A DNA stretch of 64,000 bases from the NCBI RefSeq assembly GCF_000372725.1, contig NW_005201165.1, positions 126,853-190,852 of the forward strand, given 5' to 3'. The notes under the pieces were generated by a model, which did no database searches, had not been told where the DNA came from, and saw only the letters and a program-made list of their open reading frames with translations. The translations under genes were made by a program, and so were the position numbers. Shown piece by piece: positions 4,408 to 61,277 of this stretch (positions are counted from its first letter, which is position 1; the number at the start of each line of letters is the position of its first letter). Source of the stretch: Emiliania huxleyi CCMP1516. Taxonomy: Eukaryota.

Positions 4408-6456
4408 TCAGAGGCCTGACGCGCGAGGCAGCGGCGTGCGAGGGGGCTGAGAGAGGGAAAAGGCACACAAGGGTTCGGAGAGAGGGCCGCGGCGCGATGG
4501 AGGCTTGAGCTCGCCTGCTCGCGGGCTGCAGCTGCAAGCAGCTCCGGATGAGGTCCGCGAATGCCGCGCGGTCCGGGAGAAGGCTGGTGGCGGGGCGGAG
4601 GTCATGGAGGCTGCTGCCCGCCTCGTACTCGTCCACGTCGCGAGGGTGCCTGGCAGGGAAGAGGAGCGGAGGTCGCTCTCTGACGGCAGCAGAAGCCGGG
4701 GGACGTCCGACCTCAGCAGTGCCTCTCGGCTATGCGCGTCGCCTCTGGTGCATGAGGGACCAGAGCAGCATCCCGTACGAGTAGACGTCGCACTGCTCGT
4801 TGTAGGCGGACCGCTGGACCAGCGAGGAGGAGGAGCGCACCTCGGGCGCCTGCTAAGAGGAGCCGCAGGTGTGAAGAGGCGCTCGGCGGGGGTGGAGGGG
4901 GGCGAGGGTGCGGTGGCCATGAAGTATCGGGTTCCGATGCCGGCCGTGTGGCCTGACGAGGGAGGCGAGGCCGAGGAGGCGGTGGCGGTGGAGGCGGAGG
5001 AGGAGGGCGAGGCCCGCGAAGAGGTCTTGTCGATGAGCGCCGCGATGCCAAAGTCGGCCACCTTGGCGTGCGCCGACCCGTCGAGGAGCACGTTGGAGGG
5101 CTTGATGTCGCGGTGCATGACGTTGTTGCGGTGGAGGAAGGCGATGCCGGCCGCAACCTCGCTGGCGATGCGGCCGGCGAGGCAGGCGGGGAGTGGCTGC
5201 GGCTGCTCGAGCAGAGCGGTGAGAGTGGACGGCAGGAGCTCGAGGAGCAGCGCGCTCGAGCCGTCAGGCATCAGAGTGTGGCCGTAGAGGGCGCAGACCG
5301 ACGGGTGGCGGAGCCGCGAGAGGAAGCTCGCCTCTTTGCGCAGCGAGTGGTTCTTGCGCAAGTGTCGCGTCACCTTGACCGCCACCGGCACGCCGAGCCA
5401 CCGGCCAGAGTAGACTGCCGCCTGGCCTCCCTGGCCAATCAGCCGGACGAGGGTCACCTGCGGGCAGGGTCATCTGCTCAGATCCAGCCGAGATCCAGCG
5501 ACGATATGCAGCGGCAGGGCGGGTGCGGACACCTCGCTGGCCGATATCTCGGCGTGGGGGGCGGCGGAGGCGGCGGAGGCGGCGGAGGCGGAGGGGGCGT
5601 CAACAGGAAGGCCGGTCGTGCCTGGCGAAGCCTGCAGCGCCTTATCGGTGTACTCGCTGCTCGTGTCGATGCTCTGGCGAGGGCGCGGGCTGCCGGCTCG
5701 GCCTCGGAGCGCAGCCCGCGGGCGGCGAAGCTTGACGAAGTAGGAAAGGAGAGCGGCGAGGGCTGCGACGCCGACGACGGCCGGCACGACAATGGCCGCC
5801 ACGGGAATGCCCGGAGGCGGGGCGGAGGGCGGCGGGCTTGGCGGGCTTGGCGGCAGCGGCGGAGAGCTTGGTGGGGCCGGCAGGCAGCACCCGCCCGGGT
5901 CTCCGCCCGTCTCCCAGAACGCAACCGCTATGGGGCACGAGTAATCGATATACGTGCCGCGGTTTGCGCCTGCCGTCCAGTATGCGTGCGCGTCCTTGCA
6001 CGTGTACGGGACCCAAAGGTACTTGTCGGGATGAAACACGCACTCGGTCTTGTTCACCCCCACGGGCAGGCCCGTTTCAGGGTAGTTTGTGTCGCCGATC
6101 CAGTCTGCAGTGTTGTCGCAGGCAAATGTCTCACCGTCGCGCTTACAGCAGCCGTAGCCGGCAATGGTGTCGCTCTTGTACGTCGACTCGGGGCAGATGT
6201 CGCACAGACCGGGCGCTCCGCACTCGCAGATCGCGTTGCTAGACTGGATCCACGTGCTACAGGTTATCGGTGACGTGATGTTATCGGGAACGCTGCATCC
6301 GTCGGTGTTTTGGTATCCCTGCGTGCAGACTCGGCCTATCGACGCACAGTACACGGCGCACGTGCTGTATAAGTTGACGGACCGGTCAATCAGGACCTTG
6401 CAGTCGCCGCAGACGATGCTTTGATCCTGCCACGCCGCCTCGTCGCCGCAGGACAT
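4408..6456 (-). CDS. Receptor-like protein kinase (Cys-rich ectodomain, Pro-rich stalk, single TM, TKL-type kinase), multi-exon; ends approximate
   Basis: Kinase motifs GQGGQAAVY, VAVK, HRDIKPSNVLL, DFG and DVYSYGMLLW. ORF 5470-6456 gives the Cys-rich domain and TM (IPVAAIVVPAVVGVAALAALLSYF). A GT-AG intron at ~5532-5458 joins 'EISASE' to 'VTLVRLIGQGG' in frame. Confidence 0.85.
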
Positions 6457-6599
6457 TACAGAGCAGACTCGATTTGCGGCGGCCTCCGGCGTTCATTGGG
6501 ATGATGGCAGATCCTGAAAAAAGGAATCCGCGCGAGTCCTAACTCGCGTGCCGTCAATGATTCCTTCCTTTGGGTAGTGAGGTTAAATTTCTTTCTTTT

Positions 6600-6710
6600 T
6601 TCGCGATGCGCTCCCTACTCAAGGTTCCCAGGTGTCCCTGATCGTCCTTGAACAAGATCCTGCTCGTGCAGGTGGGGACCCTGTCCCCTTCTGCTTCTCC
6701 CACCCCTCGT
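6600..6710 (+). repeat. Short copy of the retroelement 3'-end family, interrupted by the 6711-9555 insertion and resuming at 9566-9583
   Basis: GTGTCCCTGATCGTCCTT(G)A(A)CAAGATCCTGCTCG(T/C)GCAGGTGGGGACC is shared with 28770-28816 (-) and, from CTGATC on, 44107-44147 (+). The continuation GGTGTCCGTTTTATTTTAT lies right after the second TSD copy. Confidence 0.8.
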
Positions 6711-9555
6711 AAATAAATAAAACGGACACCTCTACTAGGAGATGGGTAAAAAGGAACAGGTCCCCGCCCTGCGATCTTTGTGCAGGGTTCTTTGTGGGTG
6801 TGGTCGGCGACTAGCCGGGGTCGTCCTCCCGGTGGGGGACTAGCACTAGCCGTCTTCCACATGGTCCCTCGGGTCCCTGCTGCTCCTAATCTCGTCGTAC
6901 ATCCTCCTGCTGATCTCCGCAACATCCTGCTCCCTCCCTCGTCTCGCCCTGCGCCTCCGCCTCCCCGTCGTCCGCCCTGCGTCGTCTGGTGACGGGTCCT
7001 CCATAGTCGGTACGTTGAGGTCGCCGCCCTCCTCGTGCCTCTTCCCAACGTTCCCTCGGCGGCCGATGCCGTCTGCTCCGGCTCCCCAGTCCCCGGGTCT
7101 GCCCTGCTCTCGTCTGCGCTAGCTTCTGTTTCGTCATCACTGATGTCCGTCCTCTTCTTTCTCCTCTTGTTGTATGCTTTGTACATCCTCGCGTCGATTC
7201 CTTTTCGCGTGAGCACCACCCTGAAGCCCGCCCAGCAGCTGAACCGCTCCCTAAGTCGAAGGAGCATCATCAGTCTCACCCACTTCGCTCGCTGCCCACT
7301 GTCTCCGCTCCCTCCCGCTTGAGCCGCCGTCGCGCGCGGCCCTCGTTCGTCCCACTGGCTGTTGGCCCGTCCCCACGTTACCTCTGTTATCCCTCCTCCT
7401 CCGCGACTCCCTCAAGGCTGGCCGGGCCTCCTTCCACCCAGCGAAGAGCTTCCTCAGCCACTCAATGTGTTCCTCTCTCTTCATTATGCGCGCGGTAGCC
7501 TCATCGTTGAGCTGGATCCACCTCTGCACCGCTCCCGTCGCCGCCTCGGCCACGACTTGCAAGTTCCTCGTGACCCCGGCGCCAAGGTCCCTCCGGCTCT
7601 TCTCCGAGAGATCATCTACCAGCGCCGGCAACACCCCCCCGACGGCTGGGGCTAGTGCCTCGTACCCGTCCTCATCCAGCACCCTATAGCGTGAGCCCTT
7701 CAGCGCAGCGACATGCGCTATCCTCAGCGTCTTCAGTGTATCCTTGGAGTCGGGTGCCGCCTGTGCTACTTTGCTGATCGCCGTCCCCGTCTGCGCTCGC
7801 GCTACTCTGAGGAACCATCTGGCCTGCTCCCTATTCCCCAGGCAGGCGCCGCTAAGCAAGTGCGCCATTGTCGCCCTAGGCGGGTTCTCATCTTCCTCGG
7901 TCCATTGCTGCGCGGCTTTCCGCACGTTCGGACACAGCGGGTCTCGCTTTAGTGCCGCCCTCCTCGCCGCGTCCCTCGCGGCCTTACAGACGAGGCAGCC
8001 CCTGAGTTCGCTCCTTGTGGCGGCTCCCGGGGTATCTCTCCCCGCCTCTCCCCGCATGATCCTCTCGTGGTGCGCTCCGTGTGGCACCCCCGCCTGCTGC
8101 CGCACCCGCGCTCCCATGACGGTCTTTGTCACCACGTTGTGATCATCCACGTCGATTCAATCTCGCGCTCGCCGTGCTGATCCTTGATCCGCTGGCGCTT
8201 GTCCCATTTGTGTCTCGTTGTTCCCCTGACCACATCGCTCCACAGCGGCCCCGTCACCCCTGCCGTGTGCGACCCCGCCGTGAGCCCCTCGCCGAGCCGT
8301 CCTCGCACCCACTCGTTCGTGTGGCCGCGTGTGGCGTAATAGGTCCTCCGGTCCAGTACCTCCCGCCCCCACTCTCTGTCCGCCGTCCTCCGGCGGTCCG
8401 TGTACAGGCACGGGCGTGTCCTCACTGCTTCACGGATGACGGCGGTGGCATCCTCAATCTCGCTGGCCCCCATGTTTGCAGTCGCCGCGGCGTCGGCGTA
8501 GGCGTTGCTAGCGCACCCCGCGTGGCTCGGTACCCACAGGAACGTGACAGATTCGAGCTGGGCGCGATATCTGCATATCCCCATTCCCTGAGCGGCCCCT
8601 CGAGAGAGCCTTTTCGGTACGCCGCCTCGATCTGCTGTAGCGCGGGCTTGCAGTCGCTCAAGACGAGGCACCTCCTGTCCGCCGCATCCTCCGCCGTTGC
8701 CATCTTACGCAGGTAAGCCAGCACCGCGTACATTTCCGCGTCTATCACCTGCCAGTCGTCTGGCAGTTTGCCGCCCCACAGCCCCTGCCCAAACGCGAGC
8801 CGCAGCTCATCGTCCCCGCCTTCGAGCTGTCCAGATCCCTCGACGGGTCTCCCGAATCGGGCCGGTCCTTCGTACACCCCATACGACACAACTGGTCGCG
8901 GCACGAACCTATCCCCCACCCACTTGTTTGGCATGTCTCTCCCTCCATCCGTCGCAGCGAGGTGCGTGAATGGCCGCGCTCTGTGCAGCGCGAGGCATAT
9001 CCTGGCAACCTCCGCGTTGAGCTCACGGCCCTTCTCCGAGCCGAGCGGCTCTTTATCCTTGCCCATCATAATCTGCGTCCCGTTTCTGTCGGACAGCGCC
9101 CGTGTCCCGACCTCAAACTCGTCCCACCGCAGTAGGAAGCGCGTAAGCGGATCCTCCTGGAGTTCGGCGTCTCTTACCCACGCGCCGTGCCTCGGGGGCG
9201 AGCCCTCCATCTCTCCTAGCCCCGGCACTACCCCTCCCACCTCATCGCGTGTCGCCAGTTGCGGTCTCGCTACTCCGCTCGGCGGCTCTTGCTCTTTTAG
9301 CTCGCACGGCTGCCGGTATCCGAGCGCCTCCTCACTCGCCCTCGCCATCTGTTCCGCCACGTCGCCGGCGTCACTCCCTCTCTTGACCGCTACGACTATA
9401 CCGTCGTGCTGCAACGACAGCACTGCGTGGCCGTTGCGCGCGGCCCAACGCACCTTCGCCCTTCGGCTGATACTCTCCGCCTCCTGAAAGGCGAACGATT
9501 TGACTGTGCGTTCCGGGTGCCCCTTCCCTGGCTTGTGGTGTGCACCCGGAACGCA
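6711..9555 (-). mobile_element. 5'-truncated, frameshifted non-LTR-type retroelement encoding a PolA/TV-Pol-like palm fragment, RNase H and a CxxC...H...C zinc knuckle
   Basis: Exact 10-bp direct repeat CACCCCTCGT at 6701-6710 and 9556-9565. The 3' end reads ...GGTGTCCGTTTTATTTATTT on the minus strand at 6711. RNase H motifs ATDGG / AEMYAV / LSDCK / WVPSHAG..NAYAD and CLVC...MAHLLSGAC are spread over ORFs 8422-9657, 8129-8671 and 7251-8150. Confidence 0.85.
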
Positions 9556-9960
9556 CACCCCTCGTGGTGTCCGTTTTATTTTATGGCGCGCTAACTGGAA
9601 AAACAAAAGAAGAGCTACTTCCTTTTTTCTGTTATTTTCCTTCTTTCCCAATACCACGCGCTGGCGGCCTGGCGCGCAGCGTTGAGCTCCGCGGCCTCGC
9701 GCAGCGCCCAGCGACCGCGTGCCCCCGACTGTACGACACGTGTCTGGGGAATACTCCTCCTACAATTGCCCGGCAGATGGCCGCCAAATGCGAGCGCCCG
9801 TACCTCTCTCCTCCTCCCTCTCCGCAGCCTCCGGGCGGCGCGGCCCGCCGCGTTCTTGCGCCGCCGCCTCGCGCCGCCGGCTGCAGCGCTGCCCTGACTG
9901 GCGCCAAGGAGTCAGGAGCCGCCGTGGGCACGTGCGCGCGCACCAAGCCCCAGCTGCGCC

Positions 9961-12425
9961 TCATCTGACCGTGTACGCGCGCGAGAAAGGCGCCGCCTCG
10001 TCGCCCGTCGTGCGGCGCGCCTGCAGACGGGCGACAGACCAGCACCTCTCGGCCCAGCGCCTCTCGGCCGCATCTCTTGCGCCTCTCGGCTCGATCTCAG
10101 CTGCATCTCGGCCGCATCTCGGCCGCATCCCGGCCGCCTGCGGGAAGACATTCCAGAAGCGAAGCGTCTCGTCGCCGGCGCCTGTTCACGCGCTCGCGCC
10201 GTGAAGAGGGGACGCCTTCACACGCAGCAGCGCGCGTGTCGCCGCCGGCGCCAGAGACGACTGTCTGCCCGTCGGGAGAGAGAGCGAGGTAGAGCACACG
10301 CCTGCTCGCAGCCCACGCGCGTCAAGGGCCGGGCCTCGTTGAGCTGTGTGCCGAGCGGGCGCCGAGAGAGGCGCGCGCATGGTGTGGCCGCTCAGCGTAG
10401 CGACCTTGGCCATGCTCGAGTAGCGCCAGACGACGATCTGGTTCTGCGAGTAGCCGTGCGACGAGACGAGCTCGTTGACAGTGCACGACCAGCAGAGGTT
10501 GCACACCTGAGAGAGGCGCAGGGCCGAGAGGTGCAGCCGCCGAGGTGCAGCCGCCGAGGTGCAGCCGCCGAGGTGCGGCCGAGAGGTGCAGCCGCCGAGG
10601 CGCGCGGGCTGCGTGTGCGCCTGCGAGCCCGTGTCGAGCGCCGAGAGGGCGGTGGCGGTCTGGGTGTTCCAGAAGCGGATGCAGCGGTCGGCGGTGCCCC
10701 CGCCCGAGGCGAGGAGCCCGTTCTGGTGCGGCGACCACGCAAGCGCCTTGACTGCGGCGGTGTGGTCGGAGAAGCGGAGCAGCGGGGAGGTGCCGTGCGG
10801 CGACCTGCGCGTGGGGCGTGAAGAGGCGAGGGGTGGAGAGGGCGGCCTCGGCGGGAGGGGCCGAGAGGTGCGTGGCGTGCACCAGATGAAGAGCTTGTTG
10901 TCGTTCCCCCCCGACGCGAGCTGCGACCCGTCGTGTGCCCACCGCAGCCCGCAGACCTCCTGCTTGTGGCCGACCTGCACAAGGCGGTGGGCGGGCAGGG
11001 CGGCTCAAGGTCTCAGGCCGGGGGGGAGGGGGACCGCCGCCTGCCCGCGCGCACCAGCTGCGAGGTGAAGGGCGGCGCGCTGCGCACGTCGCGCATGCAG
11101 ATGGTCCGGTCTCGCGAGCCCGAGGACAGGGAGGGACCGCTCCACGACAGAGTGCCGACACGGCCGAGGTGCCCACCCATCGTCCGGAGCAGCGAAGCCT
11201 TGGCCGCGTCCCAGACCTGCACCTCGCCCACGCTCGTGCCCACGGCGAGGTGCGTGCCTGCCCGCGCGGCCGAGCCGTGTCAGCGCGGCGCCTCCCCACG
11301 CCTCCCGCCCCTGGCCTCCCGCCCGTGGCCGCGGCGAGGCGCGCCTCTCTGCGCCCAGCAGACCGACGTGACTGTCTCTTGCCCGAGGTCGCACAGCTTG
11401 GTCACCTGGGGGGAGGGGAGGGAGGGCGGTCGAGACGGCCCGCCCTAAAGCTGGCCGAGCTCTCGCCTCGCCTTGCTCGTGCACGCGCTCCACAGGTAGA
11501 CGCACGCGCCGAGCCCGACGGCGAGCACGTTGGTCGACGACCAGTCGACCAGGTGGAGGTAAAAGTCGTCCTGGAGGGCGGGGGCGTCGAGGACCTTGTA
11601 CGGCACCTGAGAGCGGGCAGGGGTGTGGACTGGCGCGGCCTCGCTGCGTGGCGCGTCCGCAGCCCTCTCCCCGCACCGACGGGATCTTTCGCTGCGTGCG
11701 CCGCGCCGCGGGCAGCATCGGGTCCGCCTACGGGGAGAGAGAGAGGGGGGTGGCTGGGGCAGAGAGGAGAGGGGAGAGGAGGAGGGNNNNNNNNNNNNNN
11801 NNNNNNNNNNNNNNNNNNNNNNNNNNNNNNNNNNNNNNNNNNNNNNNNNNNNNNNNNNNNNNNNNNNNNNNNNNNNNNNNNNNNNNCGGAGACGAGGAGG
11901 ATGGGGGGAGGGGAGGGGAGGATTAGAGGGGTAGGAGGGAGGGAGGGGGAGAGGCAGGGAGGCAGCGGCCACCTCCACGGGTGAGAGGGAGAAGGGAGAG
12001 GCGGGCGCGTCTCGAGCGGGAGAGACGCGGTACTGGAAGAGGCTGCCGCCCGACCCTCCCCCCGCGCTGCCGCCCCTCGCGCCGTGCCGTCCCGAGCCGC
12101 GCCGCGAAGTGACTGCCACATTGTCGCCGAGCAACTCGTTCCGCAGCAGCATGTTGTACGGGTCGTCATCGCGCGGCGTGGTGGCGGCGCCGCCGTCGCC
12201 ACTGCGCTCGGCTCCGCTCCCGCCGCTCCCCCCTCCGCCTCCGCTGCCGCCCTCTGGCAGGAGCGCAAACTGCTCGGCCAGGTTTACTCCGCGCCGCGTC
12301 GGGATGAACCGGTCGCCAGTGTAGTCCGCCTTGGAGCTCGATCCACCGGAGGAGCGGCTCGGCGGTGTCGAAAAGCCGCCCCAACCGCTCGAGCGCGCCG
12401 AGGGAGGGGTGTAGGGCGGTTCCAT
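9961..12425 (-). CDS. FZR1: APC/C co-activator CDH1/Fizzy-related (WD40), multi-exon, spans an N gap
   Basis: C-box DRFIPTR; '[23 protein letters not shown]'; '[11 protein letters not shown]'; '[18 protein letters not shown]'; '[17 protein letters not shown]'-'[10 protein letters not shown]'. Terminal ...AYTVR* (IR-tail equivalent) ends at 9961. Confidence 0.92.
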
Positions 12426-12766
12426 CGATGGAAGTGGCCCGGCGAGCGTTCTGCAAAAACCGGACTGACGACTGTCGGACTAGGGAAGCTTGAGATAAAG
12501 AAAGGAGCGGATGCGACCCAAAAGACCTCGCGGGGCGAGAGTACATCTTGGCATGTCGAGGGTCGCGCCGCCGATGCCTGCCTCGTACCGCGACGGTCCG
12601 CGTATGTGTGCATGCCTCCTGACCGCCACGGTCACGGCCGCTGCGCTCCGGACAGGTTCGTTCGACGCGCTCGACCGTGATCTGGCTCGGCGGCCGCCGC
12701 TTTCTTTGGCGTCGAGCGCCCGGTGGTGAGCGCCTCTCACGGCCTTTCCAGCAGGCCGTTCGCTGC

Positions 12767-14140
12767 CCCGGCGCAGCCGCACCGACCCCCACGGCCCGCC
12801 GCACGCGCGCAGGCGCGGCTCGCGCACCTTTCTCGAGGCTGGCACCGCCGTCGAGCACCGCGCTGCCACCGACAGCGCACCCGCGCGGCCGAGGCGCCCC
12901 TCGCCGGCGCGTGCGGCGAGACGGCGAGCGTGTCGGCGCGCCTTCCGGCCGCCGCACGGCGGACGGGCCGCCCGTCGAGCCGCGCGGCGCCGAGCGAGCC
13001 CAGCGGACGCCCTCACCGCTCCGTCGGCGGGTCGTCAGTCACGACGGCCGGCCTCTCCTCCCATCCGCACGCCGCGCCTGGCCGCGCGGCGAGGCGGCGC
13101 CGTGCGCCACGCGCTGTCGCTTTGCGCGGCGACAGTGCAGCGGCACATCAAGAGCCAGCATGACTCTCCATTGAACTTCTATGTGTCCCTGTCTCCGTCT
13201 GGTAGCCTCGTGACACAGCCTCAGCTGCTCTGCAGCGCACACACGTGCTGGAGGGTGAACAGCAGGCACAATTAGGCACGAGGAGACCAGAGATAGCGCG
13301 ATAGGGAGAGGGAGAGTAGGCATAGATGCCGCGAGCGGCCTGGGCTTTGGCGCCCGCCGCTGCGGACGATCACAGGGAGTGCATTCCCGTCGGAGCCTTT
13401 GATGTGCGCCGATGGGGCTGGACACCGCGATGCAGTGTTATGCGAGCGGAACTCGGTGAGAGGCAGCGATCGGTTACTCTCGCGCTTTTCTGTGTGAGAT
13501 ATGTGTGTGTGTACCGCGCACGTGGCCGTCAGCGTGTGTCACAAGTTTGTCTCTCGTGTCTGCGGTGACTCGGGGTGTCTGGGTCGTCTCACAAGCGCGA
13601 CGCGAGAAGGACGGGAAAAGCGTGAAAGACGATCCACGCCGCTCTCGCGCCACGCCACCCGACGTGTTCAGCGACACTGGCGAAGGTCTGTAGACCCAGC
13701 TCGTGAGACGCGTGCTGGGCAACACCAATGTACGCTCGAGACAATACGACGCACAAAGACGGATCCGAAGAGAGCGCACGCTCGGAGCACCATCCGCGCG
13801 TGGCGCACGGCGCCGCCTCGCCGCGCGCGGCCGGCCGGGCGGCGGCGTGCGGAGGAGAGGAGAGAGACTGACGACCCGCCGACGGAGCGGTGAGGGCGTC
13901 CGCTGGGCTCGCTCGGCGCCGCGCGGCTCGACGGGCGGCCCGTCCGCCGTGCGGCGGCCGGAAGGCGCGCCGACACGCTCGCCGTCTCGCCGCACGCGCC
14001 GGCGAGGGGCGCCTCGGCCGCGCGGGTGCGCTGTCGGTGGCAGCGCGGTGCTCGGCGGCGGTGCCAGCCTCGAGAAAGGAGCGGCGAGCCGCGCCTGCGC
14101 GCGTGCGGCGGGCCGTGGGGGTCGGTGCGGCTGCGCCGGG
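12767..14140. repeat. Long inverted repeat (arms ~12767-13114 and ~13796-14140, ~345 bp) around a ~680-bp spacer; foldback/MITE-like
   Basis: The arms are near-perfect reverse complements (the same peptide appears in ORFs 12677-13174 + and 13589-14452 -). A short outer match also exists: 12514-12539 vs ~14387-14412. Confidence 0.9.
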
Positions 14141-28706: not shown

Positions 28707-29008
28707 AAACTGGCAGCATAAATAAATAAATAAAACGGACACACCAAACAAGGGGTGGGAGAAGGACAGGGTCCCCACCTGCGCGAGCAGGATCTTGTAA
28801 GGACGATCAGGGACACAGGGGAAGGGGAGCGGGGAGCGCATCGTGACTCGGAGGGGGGCTGGGCAGGGTTGGTTCACCCACACGACAGGGTCCAAACTGG
28901 CAGCAAAAAGAAAGAAAGAAAGAAAATAGACAACCCGAGAGAGGGATGGGAGGACGGCACGCCGCCACCACACAGGGATTTTAAGGAGAGGTGTGTAAAC
29001 TGGCAGCA
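28707..29008 (-). mobile_element. Two tandem short retroposon 3'-end copies separated and flanked by three copies of AAACTGGCAGCA
   Basis: 12-mer at 28707-28718, 28894-28905 and 28997-29008. Insert A (28719-28893) has a (TTTA)n tail and insert B (28906-28996) a (TTTC)n tail. A matches the 6.6 kb and 44 kb copies; B matches the 44 kb copy. Confidence 0.8.
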
Positions 29009-43844: not shown

Positions 43845-43949
43845 GACGGCCGCGAGGTGGCATGAAGGTTGCAGCGAGAATCGGCGAGAGACTGCGAAAA
43901 GAGATAGGAAGGGGCAGACTCCCTAGGGTGGGCGACGGCTAGCGCATCA

Positions 43950-44205
43950 CACTCCTCTCCTTAAAATCCCTGTGTGGTGGCGGCGTGCCGTCCTCCCATC
44001 CCTCCCTTGGGTTGTCTGTTTTCTTTCTTTTACGATTCACGCGACAGGCGAGGCGCGGGCGACAGCTTCCTCGGAGAAGAAATTTGGTGTCTCTCTCGCT
44101 CTGTCGCTGATCGTCCTTACAAGATCCTGCTCGTGCAGGTGGGGACCTTGTCCTCCTCCCATCCCTCGTTTGGTTTGTCGCTGTTCTTTCTTTTCTTTCT
44201 TTCGC
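43950..44205 (+). mobile_element. Tandem pair of short retroposon 3'-end copies (type B then type A), each ending in a T-rich (TTTC)n tail
   Basis: CTCTCCTTAAAATCCCTGTGTGGTGGCGGCGTGCCGTCCTCCCATCCCTC is the reverse complement of ~28940-28990. CTGATCGTCCTTACAAGATCCTGCTCGTGCAGGTGGGGACC matches 6638-6680. Confidence 0.75.
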
Positions 44206-55702: not shown

Positions 55703-56789
55703 CTTGAGGAGGAACTGTGTGCTCTGCACTTGGAGCACTGCGATGCGTCTTTTATTTTCGGGCCTCGCTATTGTCGACCCCTTTTGCGCAGCAACACCTT
55801 AAACGACTTTTAGGCGGCGGCCCTCCAAATTCGGGTCGGAGCGTAGCCGTAGGGCGTAGGCCGTAGCGCTAGCGGAGTGTGTCGTGGGGATTGGAGTGGT
55901 CTGACCAGCAAGAAGACGGGTCGAGGCCCTCCGTAGGCTCGTGAGGCGTCCCTCGTCCCTCTTCAATAGAGGGATAGGCATCTGGACCCAAAGGTTGGTG
56001 CCCAGCAGGTGTGAGTGGTGAGCCGCGTGCGCGGCTCTGCTGTACTGGTGATCGCGGGTGAGGCTGCAAAGCCATCCTCGATCCGGGTGCCGTCTCAGAC
56101 GACTGTAGATTGGTATTAAGGTATAAGGAACTCGTATCCGAGTGGTTAAAGGGAATGGCGTGGTGTCACGCCGGGTTGTGTGTGTCACATGACACAAAGA
56201 GGTCGACTGTCTCGCGGCGCGGCGGCCCCACGAGAAGTAGTCAGAGACTATTACGTGCCAATATTTGGGCGCCTATTCGGCGCCCGACGGAGGTGCCAAT
56301 ATTAGGGATCTAGGTGGCGTGACGTGCCACTGCACAGGGTGTGGGAATATAGGGATATAGGTAGACTATTCATCACTGTGGGGGGGGAGAGTGTGATAAT
56401 AGGGGTGCTGGGGTGGGGCTGGTGGAGGTGATTCTCCGGGTCAGTCTGAAGGTCATTCTCCACCACCTCCTGCGACAGCTGGGTAGCCATTCCCCGGGGA
56501 GGGGATTGTCAGGGGCTGTGTCAGGGGCTGTCTGAGTCGGGGAGGGGGCCGTCAGAGGCTGTGTCAGGAGCTGTCTGAGCCGAACTTGTTTGTATGATAC
56601 CAACTGGCGTTGAGTTGAACCACCGGTATTATTCACACCCCGGAGGGCTGGTGTATCCATCTCGTGGCTTTCAGGGTTGTCCTGGTAGTTTGATAGGTTG
56701 AGCCTGGCAGCTTGGCAAGCGTGCCGCGTGCCTGGTAGTTTGATAGCTTGGTAGACTGGTAGTCTGATGGCTTGAGCCTGGTAGCTTGG

Positions 56790-57586: not shown

Positions 57587-60500
57587 TTACAGCCGCTCGG
57601 GAAGAAGCGTGTTGAGGCAGAAGACGTGCGCGAGTCGATGAAGGAGCGCGTCGCGGCGGCGAGGTGGCGAGGTAGCAGCGGCAGCGGCTTCGGTCGTGGC
57701 GCCATCCGCTATCGGCGGCGAAGCGAGAGTAGAGATGGGATCCGAACCGGGCACCGTCTCGAGCGACACGGCCGAGAGATGCGGAGGCAGTGCGCTCGTG
57801 AAGCCAGCTACCGGCGAATCGGCAGGGGAGATACCGTCGAGCGCGTCAGGCGAGCAGTATGCGGCGGCGGCTCCGGCTGCGGCGTTATCCGCTACTATTG
57901 GCTGATTCGTTCTAGGACTGCCCCGCTTGTGGAGGCCCCAGGTCCTAGGAGTATGCCTTGATCGGCGACGTCGCTCGTATGGCTTGGTGTCATGGCACGC
58001 GCCTTCGGAGTCGATGTTGGGCGCGTCGTGCAGCCTTGCAGATGCAACAGTAACAGCCGCGTCCCCAGGCGACGCATGAAGGTCGCGTGCGACGACTGAG
58101 TCGAGGCCGGGCGGCGGCACGGCGGACGGCGGCGCGAGAGACGAAGCGGGCGAAGGCGGCGACGGCGGCGAGGAGGCCGTACGCGCCGAGGTAGATCCGA
58201 GAGCGGCGTCGCGCACGCCGTCGAGAGTAGCAGCGGCGACGGACACAGCCGCGTCAGTAGGCGACAAACAGATGTCGCGTGAGACGGCTGGTTCGAGGCC
58301 GGGCGGCGGCACGGCGGACGGCGGCGCGAGCGGAGGAGCAGGCGACGACGGCGGCGACGAGGTCGTACGCGCCGAGGTAGATCCGAGAGCGGCGTCGCGC
58401 ACGCCGTCGAGAGTAGCAGCGGCGACGGACACAGCCGCGTCAGTAGGCGACAAACAGATGTCGCGTGAGACGGCTGACTCGTCGGGCGGCGGCACGGCGG
58501 ACGGCGGCGCGAGCGGAGGAGCAGGCGACGACGGCGGCGACGAGGTCGTACGAGCCGAGGTAGATCCGAGGGCGGCGTCGTGCACGCCGTCGAGAGTAGC
58601 AGCGGCGACGGTGGCAGCCGCGTCAGTAGGCGACACACAAAGGTCGCGTGAGACGGCTGACTCGTCGGGCGGCGGCACGGCGGACGGCGGCGCGAGCGGA
58701 GGAGCAGGCGACGACGGCGGCGAGGAAGTCGTACGAGTCGAGGTAGATCCGAGGGCGGCGTCGTGCACGCCGTCGAGAGTAGCAGCGGCGACGGACACAG
58801 CCGCGTCAGTAGGCGACAAACAGATGTCGCGTGAGACGGCTGGTTCGACGGCGGGCGGCGGCACGGCGGATGGCGGCGCGAGCGGAGGAGCAGGCGACGA
58901 CGGCGGCGACGAGGTCGTACGCGCCGAGGTAGATCCGAGAGCGGCGTCGCGCACGCCGTCGAGAGTAGCAGCGGCGACGGACACAGCCGCGTCAGTAGGC
59001 GACAAACAGATGTCGCGTGAGACGGCTGGTTCGAGGCCGGGCGGCGGCACGGCGGATGGCGGCGCGAGCGGAGGAGCAGGCGACGACGGCGGCGACGAGG
59101 TCGTACGCGCCGAGGTAGATCCGAGAGCGGCGTCGCGCACGCCGTCGAGAGTAGCAGCGGCGACGGACACAGCCGCGTCAGTAGGCGACACACAAAGGTC
59201 GCGTGAGACGGCTGACTCGTCGGGCGGCGGCACGGCGGACGGCGCGAGCGGAGGAGCCGATGGCGGGGAGCTCGAGCGGGAGCCGAGCGGAGCGGAGGCA
59301 GCGTCCGGCGCGCCGAGCGACTTCGCACACCCGCTGTAGTACTGGTCCCAGCATCGGTCCCTGTACGCGACCTCGGCTCGTGTCTTGCCGCGCATCAGCC
59401 GTGTGGATGCGCGAGTGAAGACGCCGTACGTCGCGTCAAGAGCCCACGCCTCTCGGTCCTCGCGCACCTCGCGGCATCTGCGGAAACCCCAGCGCTGCCA
59501 GAGCGCGACGCTGCCCAGTTCTGCGGCGATCAAGACCCGCCCACCGTCGGCAATCGCCTTGAGTTCGGTCATCATCGCCTCGCCGATGCCCTGGCCCCGG
59601 AACTCGCGACGAGTCGCAAATGCCGGGCAGTAGAGGTAGTTGAGATGCCTATCAGAGCAGCTGACAAACCAGCATGCAGCGAGGAGTTCCCTCTGCTCGT
59701 TCAACGCGACGAGCATGCGGTAGCCGCGGCGGTACTTCAACACAGCACACAGCACAGTGGGCCACTCGTCGAAGCTCTCCTGCATAAGCTGCTCGACGTC
59801 ACGGACCAGACGTACTGGCGCCTCCTTGCCGAGGATCTCGAAGGTTAAGGAGATGCTCGCCTCCTTGCCAGCAGAGTCGGCGTTGAAGGTGCCGCCTGCC
59901 TTGCCAGCGGCTGCTGCCTCGGCCGCGACATCATCCGTAATCGGAGAGACGAGCGAGGCGTCGGGAGGCGTGCCGGATGCCGGACCGACAGGCGCCAAAA
60001 AATCCGAATCGCTCCCTGCCCTGCCCCCTGCCCTGCAGGCTCCATTCCCCGGCGAGGGGGAGGCGTACGTAGAGTTGACAGTAGCAGCGGTCTCAGCTGC
60101 GACACTAGCCCCAGAGGGCGGGTCGCGTGAGACGGCGGACTGGAAGCTGTGCGGCGGCTCGACTGACGGCTCGACAGTCAGCGAAGCAGGGGAGCTCGGT
60201 CGCGTAGGCGCTGGTGATCGAATGATGTCGAGATAGTTGCGTGCACCGGGCGCGCCTGACTGCGGTAGCGGCACTGGTGCTGGTGGCTGTCCTGCGGCGG
60301 CCAGCAGAGGCGATGGTGGAGGTGATACACCGAGGTTCTGGGCAGGTTCCCGCGCGCCCAAAGCCTCGTCGGGTGTTCGCCCAAGTTCTGTTGATTCGTA
60401 TCGTTGCTGCGTGATGCTCGCGTCCCGCTGCGAGTTCACTGCAATGGAATTGCTCGCTGCCACGGACAATCCAATCCCTTTCGGGTCTGTTGGGGCTTCC

Positions 60501-60841
60501 GTCGGAAAAGAGCTCGCCGGCAGCTCGGCAGAAAGCATCTCAGCTGGCATAGCCCCCTCCCCAACGGAGCCAGGCGGCGATGACTTGTCAAGTACATCGA
60601 TGCCGCCCTTGGGCTCGGTGTTGCCACCAAGCCTGCCCAACGTGGTGTCGTGGGGATTGGAGTGGTCTGACCAGCAAGAAGACGGGTCGAGGCCCTCCGT
60701 AGGCTCGTGAGGCGTCCCTCGTCCCTCTTCAATAGAGGGATAGGCATCTGGACCCAACGGTTGGTGCCCAGCAGGTGTGAGTGGTGAGCCGCGTGCGCGG
60801 CTCTGCTGTACTGGTGATCGCGGGTGAGGCTGCAAAGCCAT
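57587..60841 (-). CDS. LTR-element ORF (1084 aa): disordered N-terminus, GNAT acetyltransferase domain, ~6 tandem 61/62-aa Ser/Pro/Ala repeats
   Basis: ATG lies inside the right-hand LTR and the frame is uninterrupted. GNAT motif A 'FATRREFRGQGIGEAMM' and motif B 'SVALWQRWGF' at ~59630-59480. Confidence 0.8.
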   Translation of the reverse strand: MALQPHPRSPVQQSRARGSPLTPAGHQPLGPDAYPSIEEGRGTPHEPTEGLDPSSCWSDHSNPHDTTLGRLGGNTEPKGGIDVLDKSSPPGSVGEGAMPAEMLSAELPASSFPTEAPTDPKGIGLSVAASNSIAVNSQRDASITQQRYESTELGRTPDEALGAREPAQNLGVSPPPSPLLAAAGQPPAPVPLPQSGAPGARNYLDIIRSPAPTRPSSPASLTVEPSVEPPHSFQSAVSRDPPSGASVAAETAATVNSTYASPSPGNGACRAGGRAGSDSDFLAPVGPASGTPPDASLVSPITDDVAAEAAAAGKAGGTFNADSAGKEASISLTFEILGKEAPVRLVRDVEQLMQESFDEWPTVLCAVLKYRRGYRMLVALNEQRELLAACWFVSCSDRHLNYLYCPAFATRREFRGQGIGEAMMTELKAIADGGRVLIAAELGSVALWQRWGFRRCREVREDREAWALDATYGVFTRASTRLMRGKTRAEVAYRDRCWDQYYSGCAKSLGAPDAASAPLGSRSSSPPSAPPLAPSAVPPPDESAVSRDLCVSPTDAAVSVAAATLDGVRDAALGSTSARTTSSPPSSPAPPLAPPSAVPPPGLEPAVSRDICLSPTDAAVSVAAATLDGVRDAALGSTSARTTSSPPSSPAPPLAPPSAVPPPAVEPAVSRDICLSPTDAAVSVAAATLDGVHDAALGSTSTRTTSSPPSSPAPPLAPPSAVPPPDESAVSRDLCVSPTDAAATVAAATLDGVHDAALGSTSARTTSSPPSSPAPPLAPPSAVPPPDESAVSRDICLSPTDAAVSVAAATLDGVRDAALGSTSARTTSSPPSSPAPPLAPPSAVPPPGLEPAVSRDICLSPTDAAVSVAAATLDGVRDAALGSTSARTASSPPSPPSPASSLAPPSAVPPPGLDSVVARDLHASPGDAAVTVASARLHDAPNIDSEGACHDTKPYERRRRSRHTPRTWGLHKRGSPRTNQPIVADNAAAGAAAAYCSPDALDGISPADSPVAGFTSALPPHLSAVSLETVPGSDPISTLASPPIADGATTEAAAAATSPPRRRDALLHRLAHVFCLNTLLPERL

Positions 60842-61277
60842 CCTCGATCCGGGTGCCGTCTCAGACGACTGTAGATTGGTATAAGGTATAAGGAACTCGT
60901 ATCCGAGTGGTTAAAGGGAATGGCGTGGTGTCACGCCGGGTTGTGTGTGTCACATGACACAAAGAGGTCGACTGTCTCGCGGCGCGGCGGCCCCACGAGA
61001 AGCAGTCAGAGACTATTACGTGCCAATATTTGGGCGCCTATTCGGCGCCCGACGGAGGTGCCAATTAGGGATCTAGGTGGCGTGACGTGCCACTGCACAG
61101 GGTGTGGGAATATAGGGATATAGGTAGACTATTCATCACTGTGGGGGGGGAGAGTGTGATAATAGGGGTGCTGGGGTGGGGCTGGTGGAGGTGATTCTCC
61201 GGGTCAGTCTGAAGGTCATTCTCCACCACCTCCTGCGACAGTGTGGGCCCCGAGTTTGAAAAGGGCGACGGACACGC

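Follow-up and report, generated by a model that had tools for sequence, protein, structure and literature searches.

A non-LTR retrotransposon family of Emiliania huxleyi whose TV-Pol-like family-A polymerase shares a reading frame with RNase H: a predicted second-strand polymerase

A stretch of 64,000 nucleotides of Emiliania huxleyi CCMP1516 DNA (hereafter the window) carries, at 6711-9555, a retroelement in which a segment resembling the palm of a family-A DNA polymerase lies upstream of RNase H. A reading of this DNA made from the sequence alone had offered two accounts of the segment, an extra polymerase placed between the reverse transcriptase (RT) and RNase H, or an enzyme used in place of the RT. 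What is this domain, does it stand beside an RT, and what could it do for the element? The analysis shows a LINE family that carries a TV-Pol-like family-A polymerase (PolA) in one frame with RNase H, and full-length relatives in which APE and RT lie further upstream. The role that we favor for the domain, by a little over even chances, is second-strand synthesis.

The insert is flanked by an exact 10-bp target-site duplication (TSD), CACCCCTCGT, at 6701-6710 on the 3' side and at 9556-9565 on the 5' side; both copies were found where the sequence-only reading had put them, and they are the only two occurrences in the whole window, on both strands. The element reads on the minus strand. It ends in a (TTTA)n tail (6711-6722), also as first read, and an identical tail terminates two further family copies, L002 and L005. 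Upstream of the tail lie the 3' UTR (6723-6845) and the 3' part of the long ORF of the family (6846-9543, with the stop at 6846-6848), all on the minus strand, the latter being 95% identical to the 1173-codon open frame of L002. Although the 2.85-kb insert had been taken to run to 9555 (6711-9555), the family sequence stops at 9544, where family contigs depart from the window in three of the four public runs placed on the region, and the last 11 bases (9545-9555) are an inverted copy of internal sequence. The inverted match extends over 16 bp, 9542-9557 being the reverse complement of 9505-9520, and has two bases in common with the TSD. This match, together with the end of the family sequence at 9544, suggests that these 11 terminal bases arose by snap-back, in which the truncated cDNA folded on itself before it was joined to the target.

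A self-search of the window found no terminal repeat (no LTR) on the insert. An empty allele was detected in run X1, one of the four public runs used in all, as a single contig that joins 6710 to 9564 and whose next 348 bases are right flank; seven extra letters relative to a clean empty site suggest a diverged allele. A total of 7433 contigs of run X1 were placed on the region, and their cover, which is a sum over contigs and not a copy number, drops from 3' to 5', with loose ends at several internal places. A TSD, a 3' simple-repeat tail, dispersed copies with variable 5' truncation and an empty site mark non-LTR retrotransposons (LINEs), and all were found. We conclude that the insert is a LINE copy, truncated at its 5' end and frameshifted.

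The copy sits inside an older short non-coding repeat that served as its target (6601-6700, continuing at 9566-9585, plus strand) and has the opposite orientation. This repeat has a related, LINE-type 3' tail, and it resembles 28718-28996 and 43949-44193. The members of this short repeat family (6601-6710 with 9566-9585, plus strand; 28718-28996, minus strand; 43949-44193, plus strand) carry the 3'-terminal motif and the tail of the LINE, and the family is likely a SINE-like or non-autonomous partner of the LINE. The upstream part of the LINE family was not found elsewhere in the 64-kb window. Judged by eye from their motifs, the neighboring host genes resemble a protein kinase whose N-terminal part is rich in cysteine (4408-6492, minus strand) and a Cdc20/Cdh1-type WD40 protein (10186-12479, minus strand). 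Two other features of the window were noted. An inverted repeat pair of about 350 bp, 93% identical, lies at 12767-13114 and 13796-14140, and two 600-bp direct repeats, 99% identical (55879-56478 and 60645-61241), surround the ORF at 57590-60910 (minus strand); the region between the latter holds tandem arrays and a 1107-codon frame with a GNAT acetyltransferase domain, and is possibly LTR-like or a duplicated unit.

In the window copy, the polymerase segment (9295-9543, minus strand) corresponds to the C-terminal palm, the last 83 or so codons of a domain that is whole in L002. It comprises the Q..E helix (9472-9501), the LQHDG of motif C (9400-9414) and the G.....LK strand (9295-9321), and translation confirmed that the peptide first quoted for it is in frame with RNase H. 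There follows a linker (8956-9294, minus strand) which, when aligned with relatives, contains a block kept in PolA-bearing and PolA-less sister LINEs alike. RNase H (D-E-D-H-D; 8492-8955, minus strand) has its carboxylates at 8941-8955, 8728-8742, 8650-8661 and 8492-8506 and a frameshift near 8582, and further downstream a CCHC-like zinc knuckle with a long spacer (C-x2-C ... H-x4-C, spacer of about 41 aa; 7842-8000, minus strand) is kept in relatives. Both had been named in the sequence-only reading, and both could be located. Pfam applied to the window copy alone gave a weak match for RNase H (PF00075, E 0.015) and none for the PolA piece. Relative to L002 the copy has five frameshifts (at about 8582, 8154, 7338, 7016 and 6954), where two (about 8590 and 8150) had been counted; it is dead, and probably was mobilized by the protein of a longer copy.

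A metagenome scan returned 18 loci, four of which (L002, L005, L007 and L009) belong to the family of the window. L002 is 95% identical to the window copy over 2,834 bases and reaches about 800 bases further 5'. Its single open frame of 1,173 codons holds a whole PolA domain, RNase H and the knuckle, and the PolA motifs are readable throughout: the hairpin Arg, motif A as DFDD...HP, RARVK, Q..E and QHDG. The sequence-only reading had proposed to look in longer copies for motifs A and B of PolA as well as for an RT and an endonuclease; L002 supplied the former, and the latter were seen only in more distant relatives. L002, the longest family member, begins at the end of a domain that we call J-like, downstream of the expected place of the RT. 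Its first 48 bases look to us like adapter, and 30 loose letters upstream of it resemble, in frame and by eye, the final helix of the J-like domain. The whole PolA region is covered in two runs of one organism, one of which has a 655-base piece with four letters different, and contigs of the RNA libraries X10 and X14, which as contigs do not show transcription, also cross it.

Changes in the PolA domain between copies are mostly silent, with seven synonymous versus two non-synonymous between the window copy and L002, eight versus three between L005 and L002, and 20 versus six among the listed variants, where about 23% would be silent under neutrality; the comparisons share ancestry and are not independent. 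For L009, itself frameshifted, the count is six silent changes versus five. These counts, which are those that a check for selection across copies called for, point to purifying selection on the PolA domain of the family. Despite this domain, the family is heavily 5'-truncated.

We found no significant match to the PolA domain in Pfam, PHROGs, PDB sequences, a phage tblastn search or two viral-contig scans, so that the link to TV-Pols rests on fold and motifs. The structure was predicted for the domain of the relative P0017, 41% identical to that of the window family, within an alignment of 11 relatives and the window piece, and the model has a pLDDT of 90. Foldseek against the PDB gave family-A polymerases in all of the top 50 rows listed. 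With an independent structural aligner, family-A enzymes ranked first, human Pol theta at Z 13.8 (289 positions aligned at rmsd 4.4) and Klenow at Z 12.5 among them, and family B scored Z 5.8 or less. Against viral models, the best Foldseek match was a "DNA replication protein" of Zamilon (E 2.5e-11, TMq 0.66); a virophage helicase/primase/polymerase (E 5e-7) was also matched, and phage Pol I trailed far behind (E 1e-3). The Zamilon and virophage matches are TVpol-helicase fusions, as follows in part from PMC4642659. The modeled fold is that of family A, nearer to virophage TV-Pol than to Pol I. The assignment of the HDG segment to the C-terminus of a superfamily-A/TV-Pol palm is in this way borne out by structure prediction, by Foldseek and by the whole domain of L002.

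According to the part of Iyer et al. 2008 consulted (PMC2579912), TV-Pols have a hairpin Arg, two palm Asp, RxxxK and HDG on a minimal family-A fold. Motifs were counted in 148 new representatives among the best 150 of 678 matches, found with a profile that itself holds those motifs. The β-hairpin Arg, present in L002, occurs in 89 of 89 representatives with the column covered. The motif-A Asp (103 of 104) and the motif-C Asp (94 of 95) are both present in L002, and motif C in the window copy; in the P0017 model the two palm Asp sit on a strand and a hairpin. The RxxxK of the fingers is RARVK in L002, with the K (motif B) in 109 of 111 and the R in 79 of 113. TV-Pols also have a two-helix thumb and a conserved Asp in the fingers; the P0017 model has short helices at 11-40. 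By these alignments, the catalytic residues appear near-invariant, and HDG, whose conservation was to be checked, is kept across the family copies and far beyond. The gate position, five after the motif-A Asp (E174, the ribonucleotide gate, in CCPol), holds a bulky residue, Y in 49, F in 29 and H in 21 of 102, and the position of the O-helix Tyr is Met in most rows. Pol I and Pol theta proper have a gate Glu in motif A and an O-helix Tyr. The polymerases described here, in contrast, have neither, the Glu being replaced by Y, F or H.

Full-length relatives, of 3,000-4,200 aa, have the layout APE-RT-thumb-chromo-like-J-like-PolA-linker-RNase H-Zn knuckle. APE, RT, PolA and RNase H lie within one ORF in P0017, P0020, P0023, P0075 and L013/P0022; P0017 (3,038 aa) was assembled five times at full length among the 15 members listed, and in L013 a frame of 4,095 codons combines a distant RT with the J-like+PolA cassette found in the others. 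Among the longer proteins related to that of the window, 10 of 11 have the PolA domain. Pfam matched RVT_1 and Exo_endo_phos in the relatives, the RT mostly below the curated cut-off, and RT and APE are present in P0066 as well; a PDB sequence search for the RT gave no match for P0017 and one weak match, to R2, for P0022. An RT with (Y/F)ADD or VDD was found in every relative of the window's layout that reaches far enough upstream. Judged from the full-length relatives, PolA is added to the RT and not substituted for it, the RT being beyond reach in the window's own family. These proteins bear out the first of the two initial accounts, a polymerase added between RT and RNase H, and lend no support to the second. 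PolA could still assist or replace the RT in first-strand synthesis, with the RT perhaps missing from the window's family, but we consider this very improbable. CCPol-MP is noted to have RT activity, copying RNA from a DNA primer (reviewer summary, in the part of PMC7581432 consulted), and the sequence of L002 sets in where the J-like domain ends, short of the RT place; against this, every relative with this layout that extends far enough upstream keeps an RT, and so does the PolA-less sister of the 3' half.

The domain preceding PolA was modeled as four helices at pLDDT 62. J-domains recur among its structural matches (E of at least 0.5, Z of at most 5.9) and it has no HPD motif, which makes the J-like (DnaJ-type) assignment a weak one. 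One candidate 10-bp TSD, possibly a chance one, surrounds the element of about 11.9 kb in L016, and no TSD was found for L011. Internal inversions were seen in copies of a distant PolA-bearing LINE (L010, 8048-9106; L014/L015, 7351-8568).

The cassette, of about 450 aa, is not found in all sister LINEs. Of 11 RT relatives, three have it, seven do not and one ends too early; the distance from chromo to linker is 654-722 aa with the cassette and 197-241 aa without it. It is absent from sisters including P0066, the closest to the 3' half of the window copy, and is thus dispensable for retrotransposition. The 3' half of the window family is closest to the PolA-less LINE P0006/P0066 (42.5% over 614 aa), whereas its PolA is closest to P0010/P0013 (57% and 52%), the 3' halves of which are about 33% identical. 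Trees agree with this split affinity, with moderate support, which suggests recombination or cassette exchange. An AU test against grouping the RNase H of the family with its PolA relatives, a group named after the trees had been seen, gave p 0.004. The trees imply three to four changes of the cassette, not a single gain; being unrooted, they do not distinguish gain from loss. Two PolA-less sisters have other additions, a DnaQ-like exonuclease/RNase_H_2 match in P0029 (2730-2837, E 2e-4) and ubiquitin-like domains in P0031.

A profile search with the PolA domain gave 678 clusters (50% identity) at E ≤ 0.001, and 442 at 1e-10. In 31 long representatives, the commonest Pfam partner is RNase H (11), with RT in one and helicase in none. 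Another LINE layout, knuckle-RNase H-J-PolA, has the cassette at the C-terminus (L004 and others). Proteins that by eye are Penelope-like (P0016, P0080, P0082, P0084, P0085 and P0086) have it at two positions relative to the RT, and such carriers showed no RNase H match in the scan of the 31 long representatives. A quick tree built from 27 selected rows unites the layout of the window family in one group (support 88) and clusters distant LINEs with two Penelope-like rows (support 99), suggesting exchange between element classes. In P0076 and P0077, the region preceding J-like+PolA has no Pfam match, and a C..H..C..C cluster there recalls, in our view, a primase zinc finger; a non-retro context is possible for these two.

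The lack of sequence matches in Pfam, PHROGs, PDB and phages would be expected of a neutral or non-enzymatic passenger, or of an assembly chimera. This account is largely refuted, and we give it almost no credence, given the near-invariant catalytic residues, the signs of purifying selection, the 678 clusters and the repeated, independent assembly of a 3038-aa protein; nor is the domain a one-off chimeric capture, occurring as it does in family copies and in all these clusters. The patchy presence of the cassette and its exchange between lineages would also fit an active accessory with a benefit outside integration, such as break repair, the bypass of lesions, or action against viruses or against silencing, and accessory domains have a precedent in the viral helicases captured by insect LINEs (PMC6338049, in part). 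We regard such a role as unlikely, since the 31 long carriers scanned show RNase H, RT or no partner at all, and in no case a helicase, and the cassette lies in cis in LINEs and Penelope-like elements, both of which need a second strand.

How, then, might the domain serve second-strand synthesis? In the portions of PMC10760644 and PMC13586686 consulted, this step in LINEs is unresolved or assigned to host Pol theta, delta or alpha. The TSD and the 5' truncation are scars of APE-type nicking and of target-primed reverse transcription that began at the (TTTA)n end. RNase H would then degrade the RNA of the hybrid, and PolA may copy the cDNA from the 3'-OH of the upstream target, or from an RNA fragment left behind, much as the three host polymerases do for R2. 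CCPol, the sole characterized TV-Pol, polymerizes dNTPs from both DNA and RNA primers (PMC7581432, in part). RNase H and a family-A polymerase fused to an RT would form a natural kit for making the second strand, an interpretation to which we give somewhat more than even weight. The 11-nt snap-back at the 5' junction would be DNA-templated synthesis within reach of such an enzyme, a weak pointer; this single junction could also come from the RT or from host Pol theta. Sister LINEs without the cassette presumably use the RT or host enzymes, and seven of the eight PolA-less RT relatives span the place without it, which argues against a strict need. Also to be set against this interpretation are the persistent 5' truncation of the family, the lack of an RNase H match in the Penelope-like carriers and the replacement of the gate Glu and O-helix Tyr of Pol I.

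Alternatively, the cassette could be a primase-polymerase that starts the second strand de novo on the cDNA together with the J-like domain or some other partner; the element would then need neither top-strand nicking nor annealing. TV-Pols are predicted primase-polymerases (PMC2579912, in the part seen), CCPol primes with dNTPs when a small partner is bound (PMC7581432, likewise), and nearly every carrier of sufficient length has a small helical J-like domain ahead of PolA. The CCPol partner, however, is largely β (same source) where the J-like domain is helical, and the window copy has an ordinary TSD; we hold this version to be doubtful. We consider it probable, by a slender margin over even, that the TV-Pol-like polymerases are a clade specific to retroelements and make up a mobile J-like+PolA cassette swapped among LINEs and Penelope-like elements of marine protists, and that its carriers are the first eukaryotic target-primed retrotransposons to encode a dedicated, possibly self-priming, second-strand polymerase beside the RT.

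Second-strand synthesis and 5' sealing limit full-length insertion by R2-based gene-writing tools (PMC13586686 and PMC10760644, in part). The cassette offers a 330-aa polymerase that would be adapted to act in cis with a target-primed RT, and natural sister pairs with and without an intact cassette make the second-strand question directly testable. The TV-Pols of virophages and transposons would also become linked to retroelements, and a large family missed by Pfam (678 clusters) is annotated. In the literature, Repbase Reports, most subscription journals and supplements aside, we found no retrotransposon with a family-A polymerase, and no such domain is mentioned in the parts consulted of PMC8557442, PMC6338049, PMC5963040 and PMC5603734. 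The LINE clade may already have a name, with its PolA domain unrecognized.

Dualen/RandI, Ambal, Proto and similar protist LINE clades have APE, RNase H and one very long ORF, and Dualen has a second endonuclease (RLE). Like these clades, the elements described here have APE, RT, RNase H and a Zn knuckle in that order, a TSD, a tail of simple repeats and 5' truncation, but they add a chromo-like domain and the J-like+PolA cassette; no restriction-like endonuclease was matched by Pfam in them. The Penelope-like carriers share with Chlamys and Naiad, by eye, the N-terminal GIY-YIG (where present), the CxC and the Penelope-type RT, and accessory domains are known in Chlamys (PMC8557442, in part). 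They differ in adding J-like+PolA at two positions, and "polymerase A", "DnaJ" and "virophage" have no occurrence in that paper. An RT beside a family-A polymerase is common to our elements and to bacterial UG9, which belongs to predicted prokaryotic defense systems, has the polymerase in a separate gene cluster (PMC9226505, in part) and is not a retrotransposon. With the TV-Pols of virophages and PLVs (TVpol-helicase) and of SCCmec (CCPol), the domain shares the hairpin Arg, the palm Asp pair, RxxxK and HDG. TV-Pols are said never to fuse to nuclease domains (in the part of PMC2579912 consulted), whereas the domain described here is fused to RT, APE, RNase H and GIY-YIG and not to a D5/SF3 helicase, carries DD at motif A, with an aromatic residue or His at the gate position, and has no sequence-level library match. 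The usual TV-Pol context is a D5/SF3 helicase or an integrase neighborhood, and none of the 31 long representatives scanned had a helicase match. Because of this retroelement context and the absence of a helicase fusion, we class the polymerase as TV-Pol-like, in a subfamily of its own.
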